From Acaryochloridaceae cyanobacterium VAR_48_metabat_390 (GTDB taxonomy: Bacteria > Cyanobacteriota > Cyanobacteriia > Thermosynechococcales > Thermosynechococcaceae): DNA of 17,221 nucleotides. The stretch's first letter is position 1. Each line of letters starts with the position of its first letter. Under the pieces are notes generated by a model, which had not been told where the DNA came from, did no database searches, and saw nothing but the letters and a program-made list of their open reading frames with translations. The stretch lies in assembly GCA_031422435.1 (NCBI GenBank), contig JANPLU010000092.1:1-17221 (forward strand), given 5' to 3'. Shown here piece after piece: positions 123 to 12,174 of the stretch. The translations under genes were made by a program, and so were the position numbers.

Positions 123-184
123 CGCTTTGAAACCTCTTTTCTTCTACCTCTCAATAGTAGTTCTACTTTAGCCAAGCTGTACTA
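1..184 (-). mobile_element. IS630-family insertion sequence, left end (runs off window)
   Basis: Minus strand reads (C)TAGTACAGCTTGGC..., the TA-targeting end style I associate with cyanobacterial IS630 elements, ~60 nt before a transposase-like start codon. The other end is outside the window. Confidence 0.7.
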
Positions 185-2014
185 GGATAAATAGCTTTTA
201 GCTAATACCGAAAAATTTACACTCTTTAGTTGAATATAGCCGTCCATAAAGATAGCTCCATCCTCCAATAAATCTAAATCATTAGGTCTATAGCTTGGAA
301 TCCAAAAGCTACTACGAATGCTCGAATTACTAAATTGATTATTGGTTCTCTCTAATTTTTTTTGAAGCAAATGTTCATAGACAAATTGCTTGCGAACACT
401 TCTATATTTAATGTCTTCCATTTTACTAGAATCAGTAAAATACTCAGAAGTTAGATACTTTATATCAATAATTTCAAAAAATTCTTTCCATTGAAGAAAT
501 ACTCTCTCAATGAATAGATTAAATTTTTTAGCTACAGATTCTTGTGTAGAACCTCGAAAAAGGGAGTGCGTAAAAACATTTGCTCTTGAATCGTCGTGAC
601 TTAAGCCAAAAATTACACCTAAAGGTTGAAGGATTTCTTTGTAAAATTCATCCCAATGCATGATTCTTCTTTCCAATGCAAGATAGAACAAGTGATTAAA
701 GTATCTCATTTTACAAATGTAATCAGAGTCAATTTGATCAGGAATATCCCAGAAAGAATAGAAAAGCCTAGGTAATCGAGAATTTATAACTATACTCCAA
801 CTTTCTTTTTTATAAAATTCTTTAATTTTCTCAAACGTGTGAATACTTGTTAATTGATTGACATAGCCTATCTTTGCTTCGTCAATACCAAGACCTGAAA
901 TAATAGTATGATATCCATAATCATTCCAATTAGAACGAACATATATTCTGTAAATTTTCTCGTCTTTAGTCTGACTGATGAGTGATGAAAATCTGACCGC
1001 GTCAGGAACTAATTGTGAGCCATTAACCTGGAATATGCTCGATAAATCCAAGGTTTTAGTTGATAAGTTATATTTTGCCAATATCTGAGTATTGATATAA
1101 CAAAAATCTACGTGCAAAAGTTCGGAAGAATCGACATTTTTGACTAAGTAAGTTAGGCACATTGACTCCCAAACACTATGAAATTCTTTAATACCCCAAA
1201 TTTCACCATTGTCTGCTTGATGCCAATCACCATACAAAAATAATTCAATTGATTCAAAATATTGCCAGTAATCAAAATCTTTAATTGGAGTATTATTATC
1301 AATCCTTTCTAATGCATCTTTAAGAGTACTCAAGATTTGCTCATGACTTTGCTCATCAAACAAGCTGTCTTGAGATCCAAGATAATGTTGTCGAAAACGT
1401 TCTGCCAATGCCGTGATTTCGCCACTTACATTTTCCTGAAGCTGTAGCTTAATTTCGCAGAACAAATAGCAGTACATCATAACAATATCTGCTGATTCAA
1501 ACTGTACTACTGGACGTGGGAGTACTATTTGATCAACATAAGCAGCATGATTAGGCAAATATACTGCCTGATGCAAATATTTATGAATCTGACTAATATC
1601 AAACTTTTCACACTTTCCAAGTCTATAGGCAAGAGCCAAAATTTTTGGTTCATCATACGCATTTAATAATTGACCAATAATATCTAGTTTTGAGTAAAAA
1701 ATATTTTCGGAGTTATCTTCACTATTTTGAATTTCAGAGCCACTACTATTTTTGATAACCCCATCACGATCCTGTACCCCAAACTTAGAGGTTTCATCTA
1801 AATAGCCTTTTTCTACAAGAACCTCTTTGAATGTGTTAAAGATTCTATATAACAAGAAAAATAAGTCTCGTTTACTTGCAAACGTATTAAGCTGAAGAAT
1901 ATTGTCAGCAAATCCTTTAGGCAAGCAAAAATAAAGTGCATTTCCCTGCTTCTCAATACCAACAAATGAGTAATTATTTTTAACCACTAATTCTAAAGAA
2001 TTAAAATCAATCAT
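182..2014 (-). CDS. LlaJI-type / McrC-like PD-(D/E)xK restriction nuclease subunit
   Basis: N-terminal FVG...LPKG, central F..VWE.M, VPD, and C-terminal IIDIKY...KQFVYE; 12 nt downstream of an McrB-like GTPase gene. Confidence 0.7.
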   Translation of the reverse strand: MIDFNSLELVVKNNYSFVGIEKQGNALYFCLPKGFADNILQLNTFASKRDLFFLLYRIFNTFKEVLVEKGYLDETSKFGVQDRDGVIKNSSGSEIQNSEDNSENIFYSKLDIIGQLLNAYDEPKILALAYRLGKCEKFDISQIHKYLHQAVYLPNHAAYVDQIVLPRPVVQFESADIVMMYCYLFCEIKLQLQENVSGEITALAERFRQHYLGSQDSLFDEQSHEQILSTLKDALERIDNNTPIKDFDYWQYFESIELFLYGDWHQADNGEIWGIKEFHSVWESMCLTYLVKNVDSSELLHVDFCYINTQILAKYNLSTKTLDLSSIFQVNGSQLVPDAVRFSSLISQTKDEKIYRIYVRSNWNDYGYHTIISGLGIDEAKIGYVNQLTSIHTFEKIKEFYKKESWSIVINSRLPRLFYSFWDIPDQIDSDYICKMRYFNHLFYLALERRIMHWDEFYKEILQPLGVIFGLSHDDSRANVFTHSLFRGSTQESVAKKFNLFIERVFLQWKEFFEIIDIKYLTSEYFTDSSKMEDIKYRSVRKQFVYEHLLQKKLERTNNQFSNSSIRSSFWIPSYRPNDLDLLEDGAIFMDGYIQLKSVNFSVLAKSYLS

Positions 2015-2026
2015 AATCAGTAAATT

Positions 2027-3136
2027 CTAGAAATCTACATATTTAGATTTGCCAAGTCCATATACTTTTTCCATGAAGTCATTTGTCATAGCTATGAAAT
2101 CTGAATAAAGAGCTAACTCCACAGGCTTATTTTTAGACAACAACTGTTCTAATGGACGTTTATCTCTTGCAAATACACTATCCCAAAGATAGAACATCAA
2201 TTTATCTTTTACTTGGCGAAGCTCTACCATGTTATCTTCAGGCTTAATAAACCACCAGCCAATCTGCTTATCTTCAATTCGTCGAATTGTTTTGTAATTT
2301 GATTTAATGAATTCGTTTATTCCAACGATGTAATGTGACCATTCTCCCTTCACTTCATCCCCGCTCATTAGCTTTACATTTCGCAATTCTTCTGGAACGT
2401 CATCAGGCCAAAATTCTCCTATAGGAGCCTTAACATATTCCCAGTCCCAACGTCGTTTAAAAGCGCTATCGAGATAATAAATTGATTCATCTGAAGTATT
2501 AATTGTAGCAATGATAGATAAATTTTCTGGAATACTTATCCGACGTAGTTTCAAGAGGTTAAATACCCATGCTCCAGCAGGATTTTCTGTCTTGAGTTTA
2601 TCTGCTTTTAGTTGACAAAAATCTCTGTAAGATCTTTTTGTCTTATCATCTTGGATCTCAATTCCTCCATCGTGGACAATTGGCTTTATGTGCATTTCCT
2701 CTAGTAGTCCTACCAATTCCATATCTGAAATATCTACTTCATAGCTTGATCGCCCATTAACTTCGCGATCAAGTAATTGAAATACTGTTCCAAAAATTGC
2801 AGCCGCATTACCTCGATTCAATTCATCAATCACAAGTAGATAATGCTCTTGATTCCCTTCAATCAAACTTTTATATGCCATTCCTAAAACACGAATAAAA
2901 TGTCCTGGATAGAACTTATAAATGATTGAATTTCCCTGCGTTAAGGGTAATAATTTACCCATAAAGTCAGCATAGGTATATTCTGGATGAAAAACTGTCT
3001 TTACAACAGAATTAGTAAGCATTTGAATATCGTCATCGAAAGAAATTCCTAATTCTTTCGTGGCAATAGTCCGAATTTGGTAGCTTTTGCCAGTGCCTGG
3101 ACTGCCAAAAATAATTCTCTGGATTGGTTTGATGTA
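2027..3136 (-). CDS. McrB-like AAA+ GTPase (true start unresolved; possibly inactivated by TAA at 3137-3139)
   Basis: Frame stays open upstream of the ORF-track ATG (3022) to 3136 and encodes YIKPIQRIIFGSPGTGKSYQ (Walker A). Downstream motifs: FHPEYTYADF, Walker B LVIDELNRGN, NxxD (INTSD) and LDSAFKRRW. Confidence 0.85.
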   Translation of the reverse strand, partial: YIKPIQRIIFGSPGTGKSYQIRTIATKELGISFDDDIQMLTNSVVKTVFHPEYTYADFMGKLLPLTQGNSIIYKFYPGHFIRVLGMAYKSLIEGNQEHYLLVIDELNRGNAAAIFGTVFQLLDREVNGRSSYEVDISDMELVGLLEEMHIKPIVHDGGIEIQDDKTKRSYRDFCQLKADKLKTENPAGAWVFNLLKLRRISIPENLSIIATINTSDESIYYLDSAFKRRWDWEYVKAPIGEFWPDDVPEELRNVKLMSGDEVKGEWSHYIVGINEFIKSNYKTIRRIEDKQIGWWFIKPEDNMVELRQVKDKLMFYLWDSVFARDKRPLEQLLSKNKPVELALYSDFIAMTNDFMEKVYGLGKSKYVDF

Positions 3137-3619
3137 TTAAGACATATTTAAATTAAACAAATGTTTATTGATTGGAATTGGAACAAAGCTAAAGACCGGA
3201 CGACCAGAAATTTGACTTGATTCAAAAATTTGCCAGCCATCTGGCGCTAGGAATTTATTGTAAGACTCCATCAACATCTGAGTTTCCACAATATCTGAGC
3301 GAACTACTGGATGAAGTGTTTCGCAAAGGAACTTTAGTAGAAATTGATCATCGTCCTCATTGCCGAGTTTGAAACGTTCATCAAAGAATATCCAGTCCTC
3401 TTCCCAGTCACTATTGATAACGCGATGTTGCCAAATGTCGCTTTCGGCATTATCAAATCTACCGTCGTTAGAAGATATTTCGTCAAGGTCGTATAGCCTC
3501 GAAAGAAATTCAGTCTCTTCTAGTCGTCCATACCAGGAAATATCTTTTGCAGAGAAAATTTCAGTGATGTCTCTCCTCGTTACTTCTGAGATTCTTTTCG
3601 TCCGTCCAATTATCGCCAT
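3137..3619 (-). CDS. AbiJ N-terminal domain 3 (AbiJ_NTD3)-like protein with no effector domain before the stop
   Basis: ISEVTRRDI...W.GRL.E.EFLSRLYDL...S.D.RF..AE.DIWQH...N.DW..DWIF.D.RF...FL.E.LHPVVR...N..L..DGW...ISGRPVF pattern typical of AbiJ_NTD3. Confidence 0.75.
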   Translation of the reverse strand: MAIIGRTKRISEVTRRDITEIFSAKDISWYGRLEETEFLSRLYDLDEISSNDGRFDNAESDIWQHRVINSDWEEDWIFFDERFKLGNEDDDQFLLKFLCETLHPVVRSDIVETQMLMESYNKFLAPDGWQIFESSQISGRPVFSFVPIPINKHLFNLNMS

Positions 3620-3779
3620 TTCCTACACTTATAGTTTACTTTGATATCTGTATTGCTAGCATCGGTAAGCGGCTTATGTAAGACTATTGATAAAAAATAG
3701 CGCTGAATGTCTCTTCATTACATAAGCTTCAAAACACGACATCAATTCAAGGTTAAAGCGCAGCCATGAATATGATCGC

Positions 3780-4244
3780 CTATCTGTCTTCATCTGCCTC
3801 AGCATAAATTGGATCGTCTGCTGGTGGATGCCGACCAATTACTTTGTCAGCTTCGCGGATATTTATCACCCGCTCTCGATTTAAGGCTAACGTTGTGATC
3901 GTTGCACGTCCCACAGCCGTCAACCCAAGAATTAAAAGCCCATCTGTAGACCAGATAAAATGTTCATTCCAAACTTGAAATCGAGGATTGAACAATGGAA
4001 TTTCCATATTAGATTGAGGATCAACCGCCGTCAGTCGATTTGTCTTTCTTCGATTACAGTGAAAGCAAGCCAAAGCCAGATTCTCTAAATCATCCATTCC
4101 GCCTAGAGATAGCGGCATAACATGATCCACCGTAAACCTTACGTACTGCCATTCTTCAGAAGCATGGCAATATTCACATAAATAGCTCGCCCGTTGACGA
4201 ACCTGCACCAGAACCGATTCAGAAATCTTGCTACGAGACGACAC
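3780..4244 (-). CDS. HNH endonuclease (zinc-binding CxxC...DH...CxxCN type)
   Basis: CEYC, VDHVMPLSLGG.D..ENLALACFHCN, LFNPR, W.EHF.W and G.T..GRAT motifs. Confidence 0.9.
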   Translation of the reverse strand: MSSRSKISESVLVQVRQRASYLCEYCHASEEWQYVRFTVDHVMPLSLGGMDDLENLALACFHCNRRKTNRLTAVDPQSNMEIPLFNPRFQVWNEHFIWSTDGLLILGLTAVGRATITTLALNRERVINIREADKVIGRHPPADDPIYAEADEDR

Positions 4245-4246
4245 AA

Positions 4247-4525
4247 CTACGATGCTTGCTCAATTTGGGCAAGTGCCAGATTGCGGAGCGTTCGATTCAC
4301 AAAACTCAAATAGTCATCAATTTCTTCATAGCAATCTAGCTCCTTCTCCTCTTCTGAATTCAATAGAGCAGTTTGTTGCTTTGCCAATAATTCTTCAATA
4401 TGATTTTGAACCGTGCTGGATGCCCGAAATATTGGAATTCCTTCTACCAAATCAATTCGGACTGCACCTTCAATAGGCAGGCTCGTTGGCAGATGTTGGA
4501 GTTTCGTCGGTAGAGACGGCGGCAT
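4247..4525 (-). CDS. Small hypothetical protein, putative partner/antitoxin of the HNH nuclease
   Basis: 92 aa with acidic helical C-terminus (EEEKELDCYEEIDDYLSFVNR); stop is 2 nt before the HNH start. Confidence 0.7.
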   Translation of the reverse strand: MPPSLPTKLQHLPTSLPIEGAVRIDLVEGIPIFRASSTVQNHIEELLAKQQTALLNSEEEKELDCYEEIDDYLSFVNRTLRNLALAQIEQAS

Positions 4526-4612
4526 GATGATTCAGACAGTCGCTATCAGGGTGAGTTCATTATAACTAAAGGCTTAACTTGGAAAACGAAGGTTAAGTTC
4601 CTCGACTGCTTA

Positions 4613-4705
4613 ACTAACGACTCAGCATACGACGAAGCAATGCAGCTCGGTTGGCAATACCGTGAATCCCTACATCCACAGGCAGAATCAACCTCTGCAA
4701 CCTAA
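4613..4705 (+). pseudogene. C-terminal fragment of a small antitoxin-like protein
   Basis: Reads TNDSAYDEAMQLGWQYRESLHPQAESTSAT*, resembling from memory the D..YDEAM.LG..YRESL tail of small cyanobacterial TA-associated proteins; no in-frame ATG upstream in the intergenic space. Confidence 0.45.
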
Positions 4706-8050: not shown

Positions 8051-10750
8051 TTACTTTTGGAGATTAAGTTCTTGATAGGCTTCAGAGGTCTGATTGAATT
8101 CAATGATATTGGGCTGCGCTGGAGTTCCATTAATGCTGAGGGAGTACGCTCCGGCTTGGAGGCGTTCTAGATAATAAACACCTGCACCATTGGTGATAGA
8201 AAAAACCCGTTGTCCAGAGGATTGTGAAAGAGCTTCGACTTTGGCACCCCCAACAGGCTGGCCTTCTCGATTTTTTACAATCCCCGAAACAATGTACGAG
8301 CGACGGAGGGGAATCTTAACGACTGTGTAGCTGCCAGCACTCACCTCAACTGCATAGGCATCTTCTTCGGGCTGCCAATCTAACGGGAAACCCGCAGGGT
8401 CAAGGTCAAGACGATAGGTGCCTGGTAATAAACGGAGGGTAATTTGGCTTGGCTTGAGGTCTGCACTGTAAAACTGAAGTGTCTTGTTATTAATCATGAC
8501 AAGGTTTGGATCTGTATAGGTCTTCTCATTTCCCTCTCGCTGGTGATTATGATTGTTGTCAAAAAAGGGCTGAATTACGATTCCTCCCTGAGTTCGGAAA
8601 TAGTCAGCGCGGCGATCGCCTGGATGAACCCCGCCCTGAAACTCTAAACTAGAGACTAATTCGAGCCGAAAAGTTGCCTCCCGTGCCGTGGTAGACGCTC
8701 CGCTATAGCTTCCTCGAATCAGCACACCCGGAACAATCGACGTTTGGAGGGATGCAAGCACACCCGAACCTTGTGAACCGATGGCATAGCCGAAGGAAAT
8801 GTCCCAACGATAGCCGCCATCCTGGGCTTGTTGGGGCGATCGATATCGCCAACCCACCTGAGCCAAGTTACCGTGAGGCTCCAGATTAACGGATTCATAG
8901 CCCAAAAATAACGAATGCCCCGTCGTGAGATCCTGTGCGGAAGAAAGGGCGTAGCTGAGGCTTGCATTCAAGCCCGTTTCGTTGCCAAATCCGCTGAGTT
9001 CCAATCGATTTAGGCGTTGATAAAGGTTCCAGCGTAGATTTTTGTTTAGGTCTATCGTTGCGCCTACCGCCGTAAAAGAATGGCTTCCGCCAAAGCTCAA
9101 CTGCGCTCCAACTGCCGCTGGGGCGGTAGAGTCAAGATTGCCCATCAGGGCCATATTCTGCGTCACGCGCCAATTAAGGTCAACCCGACTGGAAAATTCA
9201 TCTGTACTCAAAATGGCGGTCAAATTTGACCAGGGCTTTAGCTGTATATTGCCATTGATGGAAAAGGGAAGCCCCTTTTTTCCGGTTAACACCGAAAGGG
9301 CAGCGGTCATGGGAATGCCAGAGGGCTGATAGAAAAGTTCTGCCAACCCTCTGGGCGCTTCGTCGTATACAGCGCCTAAGCCTAGGGTCAAATCGTCTGA
9401 TACACCCCAGCGTCTAGCCAGCCCACCCCGAATATCTGAAAACGTTCCTAGAAAACTAGGAGGGGTAGACCCTGAGAGCTGCCGATTAAGACCTACTGAA
9501 GCGATTAGTGCTGATGCACCAGCAGGCAGTTGACCAGTAATGGGGGTGAAGGTGACTTCGCGGATTTGGGGTGTGGCGGTGAGTCTTCCTAGGGGATAGA
9601 GAAATAGGCGATAGTTGCCATACTGAAATTGGGTGTCAATTTTGATGTGATCAAAGCGATAAATGCCAGAAGAATCGACCAGTTGCTCTGCAATGACGCG
9701 ATCGCCAAACCCCTGTTTTAACTGCACGAGGGTTCCTGGCGCTGCTCGCCCTGAAATGGTTCGACCCAGTTGGGTGGCGGCTAGGCGCTGCCGGAGATCG
9801 GGCGGTCCATCATAGAATTGCTGAGGAGGGCTAAAGTTATAGCGCTGAATTGTTGTAAACCCCACATAGTCGCCGCTGCTATTCCCCAACCAAAAGGGTT
9901 GTTGAGACCCCAAAAGATAGTCTGCTGTATTCGTCTGCCGCAACAACTGGGCATTGGCAAGCGACCAACTGGCTGGGTTAGCTAAATCCTGCTGATTCAT
10001 CTTCACAAACCAGCTCCCGCCAAACAGATGCCCCACCGCCGTTAGGTCGCCCTGATAGCTAGGCACCTCGCGCTGAGAACCGCTGATATTAACCTGTTGC
10101 TGAAGGGTGCTGAGGGTTGCCCTAGAAGGTTTAATCTGGGGTAAGCCTTCTAATTGTAGGGGGAGAGTCGTGAGTTCAAAGGATTGTCCGGGTTGATTCA
10201 CCCAGGGAACCTGTAGCTCAATCGCATAGTTAATCAGGTCAAATTTAGCCTCAACTCCAAAGCGGCTTTTAAGATCCTGAATCGAAAAGACAAGTCCTAA
10301 CTCCGGGTCTGTGAGGAGTGTTTTGAGATCGATCCGAGTGACAACTCCAGGAGAGCGCATCTCCACCTGACCCTCTGGCAAGGTCTTAACATCCAGGTTT
10401 AAAACCTGAATCACCGTGTCGTAGGGCACCAGCCAATGGTCAAAATCAAGTGCTTTCGTTCCATCTTCGCGTCCTCGCACCAAAACACTAGGAATCACAT
10501 TCCGGTTATTAACGTTGATGCCCACCGGAAACGTGCTGGGCTGATTAGAACCGTTGGTTGTCGCAGAATTTGTTGTAGCGCTGGGCGAAGCCGTTGGCAG
10601 AGACGCTGGAGCGCTGGGGAGTGCCCAACAGGAAGGAGTTGCCATCCAGCAGCCCAGCATTGCAAACCCATAGATGGCTCCTTGTCTCAATCCGGTAGCA
10701 TCCGTTCGCCTGACCGTTATGGAGGGCATGGTTTTCGTTAGTCTGGGCAC
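8051..10750 (-). CDS. Fimbrial usher-like outer-membrane protein with C-terminal Ig/carboxypeptidase-regulatory-like domains
   Basis: Signal-like N-terminus; beta-rich body; plug-like TISGRAAPGTLVQL...VDSSGIYRF, QLPAG..SVG and WGVSDDLTLGLG echo PapC/FimD motifs; C-terminal F.D.N.N...EG.E and VSG.V...G.PV.GA.V...TNGAGVYY. Adjacent to a PapD-like gene. Start may be GTG 10750 or the ATG 7 codons later. Confidence 0.7.
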   Translation of the reverse strand: MPRLTKTMPSITVRRTDATGLRQGAIYGFAMLGCWMATPSCWALPSAPASLPTASPSATTNSATTNGSNQPSTFPVGINVNNRNVIPSVLVRGREDGTKALDFDHWLVPYDTVIQVLNLDVKTLPEGQVEMRSPGVVTRIDLKTLLTDPELGLVFSIQDLKSRFGVEAKFDLINYAIELQVPWVNQPGQSFELTTLPLQLEGLPQIKPSRATLSTLQQQVNISGSQREVPSYQGDLTAVGHLFGGSWFVKMNQQDLANPASWSLANAQLLRQTNTADYLLGSQQPFWLGNSSGDYVGFTTIQRYNFSPPQQFYDGPPDLRQRLAATQLGRTISGRAAPGTLVQLKQGFGDRVIAEQLVDSSGIYRFDHIKIDTQFQYGNYRLFLYPLGRLTATPQIREVTFTPITGQLPAGASALIASVGLNRQLSGSTPPSFLGTFSDIRGGLARRWGVSDDLTLGLGAVYDEAPRGLAELFYQPSGIPMTAALSVLTGKKGLPFSINGNIQLKPWSNLTAILSTDEFSSRVDLNWRVTQNMALMGNLDSTAPAAVGAQLSFGGSHSFTAVGATIDLNKNLRWNLYQRLNRLELSGFGNETGLNASLSYALSSAQDLTTGHSLFLGYESVNLEPHGNLAQVGWRYRSPQQAQDGGYRWDISFGYAIGSQGSGVLASLQTSIVPGVLIRGSYSGASTTAREATFRLELVSSLEFQGGVHPGDRRADYFRTQGGIVIQPFFDNNHNHQREGNEKTYTDPNLVMINNKTLQFYSADLKPSQITLRLLPGTYRLDLDPAGFPLDWQPEEDAYAVEVSAGSYTVVKIPLRRSYIVSGIVKNREGQPVGGAKVEALSQSSGQRVFSITNGAGVYYLERLQAGAYSLSINGTPAQPNIIEFNQTSEAYQELNLQK

Positions 10751-10773
10751 CCCTCAGATAAGATGCTCATCTA

Positions 10774-11634
10774 TTAAGGCAACCCACCGACGGGCTGGGT
10801 CGGCACTATAACGCTGAGGGTAAACGGCAACCGATTCTGATTGCTCTCTTCACCCCCCCAAGAGAGTTGTCCGGTGAGTTGATAGGTGCCAGGTGAAAGT
10901 CTTGGCTGGTTTGCAGCCGAATATTCTAGCCCCAAGAGTCGCTGACTGCCAGCAATGATGGTGGTAGCAGGAAGCGTCCCCTGGGTTACAACGGTCTCGC
11001 CCTGCTTTAAAGTCCAGGACATTTGAGGACGGGCAGAAGCTTGACCTGTATTTTTAATAAACAACTGAATTTGATTGTGCTGACCCTTAAAACGAGCATT
11101 CTCAACGACCAAATTTGCTGAGACAGCTCCCTTGCGGACATAAACCGCCGTACCAACACGAGTACCGACCTGAATTTTGACGCCCTCGGTGTTGATAAAA
11201 GGAGTTTCCGTCAAGTTTTCTGTAAAAATAGCCGTTCGATATTCCCCATCCGGGAGGCTGGGTGGAAACCGGACAAACACCCGAACGAGCCGACTGGTCT
11301 TGGGCGGTACCGCTAACTCTCGCGGCGAGAACTGCAAATAGGGTGCAAGATCGTTGGGGCTGGCGGTCAAGGTTTGAAAGCCTTGCTCTGGATGGTAGGT
11401 AAAGGGCTGGGGGTAAACCCGTGCTCGAAACGTCTGATCACTGACATTATCAATGGAGATAACGGCCTGAGCTTGACCCCGTTCCGCCTGGAGTTCGAGC
11501 ACGAGAGGGGTCAGGCCAACCTGGGCTTGAGCTATGTTGCCGCAACATAAAATAGCCGGCAAAACAAAGCTACTGCAATAAATGGCTGCACGAATCATTG
11601 GAAAATAACTTAACACGATCACCCTGCTGGGCAT
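10774..11634 (-). CDS. PapD-like periplasmic pilus assembly chaperone
   Basis: Signal peptide ending AQA; VGLTPL.LEL, LQFSPREL.VPP...R.VRV, LPDGEYR and second Ig-like domain (KNTG.AS). True start may be the ATG near 11598 (MIRAA). Confidence 0.8.
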   Translation of the reverse strand: MPSRVIVLSYFPMIRAAIYCSSFVLPAILCCGNIAQAQVGLTPLVLELQAERGQAQAVISIDNVSDQTFRARVYPQPFTYHPEQGFQTLTASPNDLAPYLQFSPRELAVPPKTSRLVRVFVRFPPSLPDGEYRTAIFTENLTETPFINTEGVKIQVGTRVGTAVYVRKGAVSANLVVENARFKGQHNQIQLFIKNTGQASARPQMSWTLKQGETVVTQGTLPATTIIAGSQRLLGLEYSAANQPRLSPGTYQLTGQLSWGGEESNQNRLPFTLSVIVPTQPVGGLP

Positions 11635-11662
11635 CTCCTATTCTTGAGCTGTAAGAGATGCC
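11630..11662 (-). promoter_or_regulatory. Stem-loop between pilin and chaperone genes
   Basis: mRNA GGCAUCUCUUA-11 nt-UAGGAGAUGCC gives an 11-bp stem with one G-U pair; no U tract. Confidence 0.5.
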
Positions 11663-11682
11663 AAAATATCCCGACGTTTCTA

Positions 11683-12174
11683 TTACAGAGGAGTTGCAGT
11701 GAGTGTGGTCTTGAATCCATAGGCTCCAGCAGGTGCAGCATTAGGACCCGTGACGCTGATTCCAATGCTTAAAAAGCGTGTTTGAGAGGTAAACGACGAG
11801 GTCACGTTAGCAGTACAGCTACCGTTAAGTATCGTGGAAGTGAGACCTGTCACAGAAACTTGACAAACTGTAGCAGTTGATTTGAAGGTGGTCGCCGCTG
11901 TAGTTGTACCAATTGGAGGGGATACCGTTAACGTAAAGTTACTGTTGCAGGTGAGAGCAACACCACCGTTAATTCCATCGGACGTAGACAGCCTTTTGTT
12001 ATCAGAAGTCCGGCCTAAAATCCCGTTAGCAGGGGTACCAAACACACATTGCGGTGCAATAAGAGTGCCAGCACCTACATCAGATGAGACGGGAGCAGCA
12101 TGAACAGAAGGTGCAAATGCCACTACTCCAGCAGCGACTAGAATAGAACTCAAGCAATATAAACGAATTATCAC
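11683..12174 (-). CDS. Secreted pilin-like subunit (Csu/spore-coat-U-like fold likely)
   Basis: GTG start after AGGAGG; signal peptide ending VHA; T/S/G/A-rich mature chain with four Cys; C-terminal AGAYGFKTTLTATP alternating beta-strand as in chaperone-usher pilins. Confidence 0.7.
   Translation of the reverse strand: MIIRLYCLSSILVAAGVVAFAPSVHAAPVSSDVGAGTLIAPQCVFGTPANGILGRTSDNKRLSTSDGINGGVALTCNSNFTLTVSPPIGTTTAATTFKSTATVCQVSVTGLTSTILNGSCTANVTSSFTSQTRFLSIGISVTGPNAAPAGAYGFKTTLTATPL

Follow-up and report, generated by a model that had tools for sequence, protein, structure and literature searches.

In Escherichia coli K-12, two genes specify McrBC, one for a motor and one for a PD-(D/E)xK nuclease, and the motor subunit, McrB, carries an N-terminal domain of about 150-160 residues in front of its AAA+ region. 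A short form, McrB-S, is made from an in-frame internal start; it is without the first 161 residues and is described as modulating activity (PMC3874153, PMC2993543). The McrBC census gives N-x-x-D as the signature loop of McrB motors (PMC10542128). The motors of LlaI and BsuMI are bare, DNA binding falls to a separate subunit, R1, and three restriction genes are present together with methyltransferases; LlaI.R2 and BsuMI.R2 hydrolyse several NTPs and have no GTP preference, and the same work proposes that N-terminal domains were gained by fusion onto bare ancestral McrB motors (10.64898/2026.08.31.748284). A further domain, AbiJ-NTD3, is found at the N-terminus of defence enzymes and has been proposed to be a sensor or a regulator of a toxic effector; its partners, as named in the accessible part of that study, are the AbiJ HEPN domain, an ABC ATPase, a DUF2726 REase, TIR and a kinase, a list from which McrB is absent (PMC3710099). 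No mechanism is known for AbiJ itself, and phage escape maps to ssDNA-annealing proteins, according to PMC13064643.

The window, the whole stretch of 17,221 nucleotides analysed here (Acaryochloridaceae cyanobacterium VAR_48_metabat_390, contig JANPLU010000092.1), contains a minus-strand pair that resembles each of these systems in part. As in E. coli K-12, there are two genes, for a motor and a PD-(D/E)xK nuclease, and as in E. coli McrB a domain precedes the AAA+ region; that domain is, however, a different one, and the signature loop, although it has N-x-x-D, matches the fuller consensus MNT[A/S]D[R/K]S in part only (INTSDES). By fold, both subunits match BsuMI best (B. subtilis YdiS/YdjA; entry 9a5m, which is an integrative model). 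Since the R2 proteins of BsuMI and LlaI, the nearest relatives in structure, use several NTPs, the first-pass annotation's label of GTPase is provisional. The basal members of the family are, like BsuMI and LlaI R2, bare motors without an N-terminal domain. Unlike BsuMI and LlaI, the system consists of two genes as far as seen in the window, where neither a separate R1 nor a methyltransferase was found beside the pair; the nuclease of the family is longer and has an inserted domain, and one branch has AbiJ_NTD3 on the motor. As in AbiJ-NTD3 proteins, the domain is N-terminal, but its partner is a motor: the HEPN domain of AbiJ abortive-infection proteins is absent, and the C-terminal part is AAA+. 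The pair is neither E. coli-type McrB (by score) nor an AbiJ protein. The features are as follows.

3140 to 3619, minus strand: 5' part of a broken fusion gene, AbiJ_NTD3 plus linker, with a 160-aa product if translated (PF18860, E 1e-52)
3143 to 3145, minus strand: junction ATG, the start position of bare motors (87 of 120 listed starts) and a candidate internal start in fusions (Met in 22 of 22)
3137 to 3139, minus strand: premature TAA, where relatives have CAA, Gln (runs X3, X4 and X7 differ at 3139; Gln in fusions)
2027 to 3136, minus strand: McrB-like AAA+ motor region, still open (motifs, phmmer and fold matches)
3106 to 3083, minus strand: Walker A, GSPGTGKS, followed by an aromatic Y (motif)
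2836 to 2822, minus strand: Walker B, LVIDE (motif)
2503 to 2483, minus strand: N-x-x-D loop, INTSDES (NTSD) (motif)
2458 to 2447, minus strand: arginine pair, KRRW (motif)
182 to 2014, minus strand: intact 610-aa McrC-like PD-(D/E)xK nuclease, with PD at about 1006-1001 and D-x-K within 472-455 (alignment of 24 partners and fold matches)

The AbiJ_NTD3-motor fusion and its relatives

The open reading frame list cuts this frame in two, a 160-aa ORF (3619-3137) and a 331-aa ORF (3022-2027). Read as one, the frame from 3619 to 2027 has 530 codons and a sole stop, TAA at codon 161, which bears out the first-pass annotation's description of a single frame split at 3139-3137. The same annotation was right that the 331-aa ORF is without a P-loop, because Walker A (3106-3083) lies 5' of ATG 3022, where that ORF begins. 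In annotation terms, this gene call is a pseudogene fragment rather than a P-loop-less protein. G+C content here is 31-38%, while most of the window is at about 50%.

Residues 9-148 of the 160-aa ORF match PF18860, AbiJ_NTD3, with 178.3 bits against the Pfam cut-off of 32.5, covering profile positions 1-138 of 167. The second part of the frame matches AAA_5 weakly; its scores with the NCBIfam model for E. coli-type McrB, PRK11331, were 41.5 and 42.9 bits, short of the equivalog cut-off of 637.

The closest homologues of the window gene are continuous fusions of 520-550 aa; for fusions as a whole, the sources named are Trichocoleus, Geminocystis and Cyanobacterium. Among the 120 listed matches to the motor part, 18 have at least 110 residues before Walker A, and all 18 carry PF18860. 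The first-pass annotation had asked whether homologues of the joined translation are continuous fusions; the matches to the motor part include such fusions, and the outcome that would have spoken against fusion, homologues always starting just before KPIQ with no AbiJ domain, was not what we found. No break at the joint is present in P0121, the best match among the 120 listed, whose 90% cluster also contains P0241 and the 331-aa call of the window; with P0241 as the query, three further entries with AbiJ came up. P0241 is a continuous 525-aa fusion, 89% identical to the window gene. When the window frame was read with X at the stop, it aligned to P0241 at 89.3% identity over 523 columns with one gap opening, so the frame common to both parts is not a matter of chance. 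Gln occupies the place of the stop in 11 of the 15 fusions that have Met at the same site as the window, and all 15 have a residue there. The two genes also differ at their 5' ends: window codon 3599-3601 (minus strand) is ACG where P0241 and most fusions have their start Met, and the window ATG at 3619 gives six extra residues relative to that aligned Met. The ACG is possibly a second lesion, or else a shifted start.

In the predicted structure of P0241 (pLDDT 82.7), AbiJ_NTD3 folds whole, with pLDDT over 90, and ends near residue 141; residues 146-155 have pLDDT below 50, Met154 lies within this linker, and the AAA+ fold runs from residue 162. The top fold match was the motor chain of BsuMI 9a5m (E 1e-12), McrB coming next, and phmmer with P0241 found the solved motors of Thermococcus gammatolerans and E. 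coli McrB at E 4e-12 to 2e-9. For the AbiJ_NTD3 fold, the Foldseek matches listed for the fusion model were all AAA+, and ESM Atlas gave no usable match.

The fusion is sparsely distributed. Matches to the query occur in 29 of 401 cyanobacterial genomes, at full length only in G000 and G228, and the G228 fusion has a stop elsewhere, late in the motor. In the family f34 the fusion is present in 4 of 20 genomes, in 3 of them stop-free. A DNA search of 60 related genomes gave no match beyond the window's own genome, a protein search of the order matched that genome alone (0 of 47 others), and no second copy was found in it. This absence from related genomes fits a horizontally acquired cassette. 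Plasmid records gave 29 matches, none over 80% of the fusion. Damage is common across the family: the motor or the nuclease is broken by a stop, frameshift or truncation in 13 of 57 loci (a count that leaves out L032, a false flag), and some of these may be assembly errors.

The intact fusion family appears to be undescribed so far and to be a variation on known McrBC-like pairs. The word 'AbiJ' does not occur in the text or in four supplement files of the McrBC census (PMC10542128), and searches for an AbiJ-McrB fusion, AbiJ_NTD3 and cyanobacterial McrB returned no description in the literature covered, which lay outside subscription papers; supplements to the bioRxiv LlaI work may list such proteins.

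The TAA codon at the junction

From 3145, the minus strand reads ATG (3145-3143) TCT TAA (3139-3137) TAC ATC AAA CCA ATC CAG. Eleven sequencing runs, none of them of RNA, were listed for the region, and we compared the window with seven, all as assembled contigs. The TAA is present in contigs of two samples of one study, X1, which may be the source of the window, and X2, at depths of 9.5 and 6.5. Plus-strand G at 3139, which gives CAA and hence Gln, was found in X3 and X4 (study P2) and in X7 (study P3). In X4, one contig covers 3051-3204 with 4 differences and without a gap, which leaves the frame open across the joint; X7 also has no gap, its contig ending 11 bases beyond 3158. Apart from 3139, X7 and X4 have 8 differences listed for the motor part, and all 8 are synonymous, which suggests that the frame was under selection until lately. 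Runs X9 and X10 had no contig matching 2960-3330, and the junction DNA pattern had 0 matches in metagenome contigs.

These comparisons bear on whether the TAA exists at all. The first-pass annotation had noted that a sense codon in the reads would make it an assembly error. Depth is low (9.5 and 6.5) and the evidence comes from contigs, yet the second sample, X2, has the same base and shows 0 differences from the window over the 436 bases of 2976-3411; we consider a sequencing or assembly error extremely unlikely. On the contig evidence, the TAA is a real, lineage-specific nonsense change, and probably a recent one. In our view, the gene was very probably split by a simple nonsense change, with CAA turned into TAA at codon 161. 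One of the three readings offered in the first-pass annotation, a broken or read-through fusion, thus stands in its nonsense form, with continuous fusions as the closest homologues and CAA in relatives.

The read-through form of that reading found no support. Programmed or suppressor readthrough would yield the full fusion, and both parts do share one frame with only the TAA between them. Against this, no relative has a stop at the position: all three informative outside runs and all 15 fusions have a residue there. No TTA-anticodon tRNA was among the 39 tRNAs found, an incomplete set from which Ile and Tyr tRNAs are also missing. TAA is moreover the commonest stop of the genome (683 of 1465 long ORFs), and termination is strong where a T follows TAA. 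We give readthrough next to no probability.

A different way to rescue the motor would be for ribosomes stopping at the TAA to re-initiate at ATC 3133-3131, or at a later ATC or ATT, and make a working short motor. The ATC stands 8 residues ahead of the Walker A strand, a position at which Met occurs in 8 of 22 fusions and in some bare motors; apart from the stop, motor frame and nuclease are intact. ATC and ATT are, however, very weak start codons, and an intact downstream frame is expected anyway after a recent mutation. Nor did the ATC arise as an adaptation to the stop, for the CAA-bearing X4 and X7 have no change listed there. The non-canonical restart suggested in the first-pass annotation found no support here, and we regard it as very unlikely.

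The remaining suggestion was of two separate genes, a truncated AbiJ gene abutting a short McrB, sharing a frame by chance. Within the flanks fetched, AbiJ_NTD3 was found near the motor in 0 of 57 genome loci (best E 0.37), and AbiJ and motor lie in different frames in X3 and in L127 (P0002). X3 lacks one base at 3158, a frameshift in the linker, but it also has a stop at codon 246, inside the motor; it is thus an independently decayed allele and no proof of a working split form, and we rejected its deletion as such an allele. The shift in L127, one extra T in a T run, may be an error. P0241, P0121 and X4, on the other hand, are continuous over the joint, and P0241 and X4 refute separate genes for the window lineage, leaving this reading a negligible probability. 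The idea that an indel brought separate genes into frame gives way to the continuous fusions, the 90% cluster shared with P0241 and the open X4. A truncated AbiJ neighbour with an intergenic linker can likewise be set aside, the domain being whole in the P0241 model and the linker coding in P0241, P0121 and X4; what survives of the earlier proposal is ATG 3145 as a start position, at which 87 of the 120 listed matches begin exactly. L127 is of note in its own right: its AbiJ ORF and motor lie in different frames, with the extra T just before the junction ATG and the motor frame open as far as the contig end, so that either a split allele occurring in nature or an error may lie behind it.

Under the nonsense reading, the window allele could yield no more than a free 160-aa AbiJ_NTD3 and a nuclease that has no motor. 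Because the TAA lies two codons after the junction Met, a long and a short form of the motor would both be lost, and the McrBC-like defence pair of this strain is likely to be inactive. The stop itself carries little weight, being one more inactivated defence gene.

The junction methionine and the history of the family

The position of the junction ATG is shared well beyond the window. Among the 120 listed matches, 95 have their start 8-15 residues ahead of the Walker A strand; for 87 of these the distance is exactly 12, which corresponds to ATG 3145. All 22 fusions examined have a Met 5-12 residues before that strand: 14 at -12, 7 only at -8 and 1 at -5. The background chance of a Met within 8 residues is 0.13, and control AbiJ_NTD3 proteins with other effectors have Met in a like window in 6 of 49 cases.

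Two explanations of this Met seem to us evenly balanced. It may be a working internal start in the intact fusions, so that long and short motors would both be made. Or it may be a relic start codon, or a residue kept for a protein reason, with no short form, and to this we assign the same even chance. A relic is plausible in that a single fusion origin is possible, so that the 22 cases are not independent, and in that nearby linker columns also hold ancestry, such as F in 12 of 22 four residues upstream. In P0167, the Met is only 5 residues before the Walker A strand, inside a conserved stretch. Set against a relic, the Met is the best-kept residue of a variable linker (14 of 22 at -12, the others at -8 or -5), it sits in a linker modelled as disordered, the controls have so few, and bare motors nested among fusions start at it. 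Predicted RNA folding points the same way: of the in-frame ATGs, the one at the junction has the least structure in all 7 loci for which there is DNA (93rd-100th percentile), 4 of these loci being kin; the test is a weak one because the true starts of 51 bare motors reach a median of only the 64th percentile. Databases also register the ambiguity: P0232 and P0233 are one gene, on a 21,220-base contig, recorded with both starts (526 and 368 aa), which implies that gene callers disagree at the junction.

A tree of the motors (91 rows, by a quick method) suggests how the two starts are related. Its basal branches are all bare motors. Of 23 fusions, 22 fall into one branch of 50 rows (support 100), together with 13 bare genome loci and 15 short proteins; one fusion, P0230, lies outside it, and at least 4 label changes fall on starred branches. 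In a tree of the AbiJ domain, 24 fusion or split rows are in one branch of 27 of the 68 rows (support 95). The ancestral gene was probably a bare motor, to which AbiJ_NTD3 was added in front, probably once, with the old start Met kept. One gain on a bare motor, then losses and some recombination, would be the simplest reading of the trees.

Such losses might have left remnants. In 92 stretches upstream of bare motors, resemblance to the AbiJ linker reached p 0.007 in L008, 0.027 in L108 and 0.047 in L099, and these three have F-R/C-E-I in register; since none survives correction for 92 tests, they are a lead only. The DNA motif for F-R/C-E-I lies about 45-50 bases upstream of the motor ATG in the Pseudanabaena-like bare motors L008, L108, L099, L007 and L022, in frame in three of these loci and out of frame in two. 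This motif is either left over from an AbiJ domain that was deleted or belongs to a promoter element that the loci share.

How might an intact member work? From its motifs and folds, we would expect the motor to assemble into a hexamer, driven by NTP, and to engage the McrC-like nuclease of 610 aa in the manner of McrBC and BsuMI. AbiJ_NTD3 would stand in place of the McrB recognition domain and would probably sense some component of a phage, or nucleic acid. If the junction Met is used, long, sensor-bearing and short, sensor-less subunits would be produced, the short one adjusting activity in the way that McrB-S does. This putative short form would begin 12 residues ahead of the Walker A strand, whereas E. 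coli residues 162-197 precede the matched stretch; with that start, it would be without the guanine-reading linker. The combined proposal, that intact members are AbiJ_NTD3 grafted onto a bare BsuMI-type motor, with the old start in use and mixed sensor-bearing and sensor-less hexamers, is one we advance tentatively, at somewhat less than an even chance. If true, it would mean that the McrB-L/McrB-S arrangement arose independently here, would reveal how such short forms come about and would link a domain that senses phage to a motor that cuts DNA. The intact family is in any case a compact test bed for what AbiJ_NTD3 senses and for how McrB motors gain N-terminal domains, and nature offers bare, fused and broken alleles, 60-90% identical, for direct comparison.

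The nuclease partner and its surroundings

The 610-aa gene follows the motor gene here and in most loci with enough flank. Its product matched nothing in Pfam, NCBIfam or PADLOC, and a PDB sequence search had a best E of 0.34; across 24 partners, Pfam returned no restriction family, only stray matches in 1-2 members. PD and D-x-K are nevertheless invariant in all 24 aligned partners. The nuclease model (pLDDT 81.7) has BsuMI YdjA-YdiS 9a5m as its top fold match (E 9e-7), then McrC. Pairwise comparison gave Z 14.7 with 9a5m (rmsd 12.2, 327 aligned), Z 8.6 with TgMcrC, and Z 6.7 with the EcMcrC nuclease (rmsd 4.2, 123 aligned).

Between PD and D-x-K lies an inserted beta-rich domain with W-x-D-Y/F-x-Y-x-T, at residues about 352-425 (window 740-961, minus strand). 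A profile of the insert also matches L087, an unrelated AbiJ_NTD3-ABC-ATPase-like protein (E 5e-5), as well as an ORF that stands apart, downstream, in L045; beyond the loci of the family, the next match has E 0.47. The inserted domain may be the recognition module of the bare-motor systems.

No third gene was found beside the pair in the window, where the contig ends 181 bases past the nuclease, and inspection of 60 loci by eye revealed no constant neighbour. A promoter scan of 2900-4700 found 4 sites, against 4.2 expected, with 0 on the coding strand. Two ORFs lie upstream on the same strand (3780-4525, minus), a 92-aa unknown and a 154-aa HNH gene, no methyltransferase being seen beside the pair. 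Many other contigs of the compared runs cover the HNH region, which implies that these two genes are probably a common multi-copy cyanobacterial pair outside the system. Further away, at 8051-12174 (minus strand), genes of 163, 286 and 899 aa resemble what we take to be a chaperone-usher-type cluster, with pilin-like, chaperone-like and outer-membrane usher-like members.
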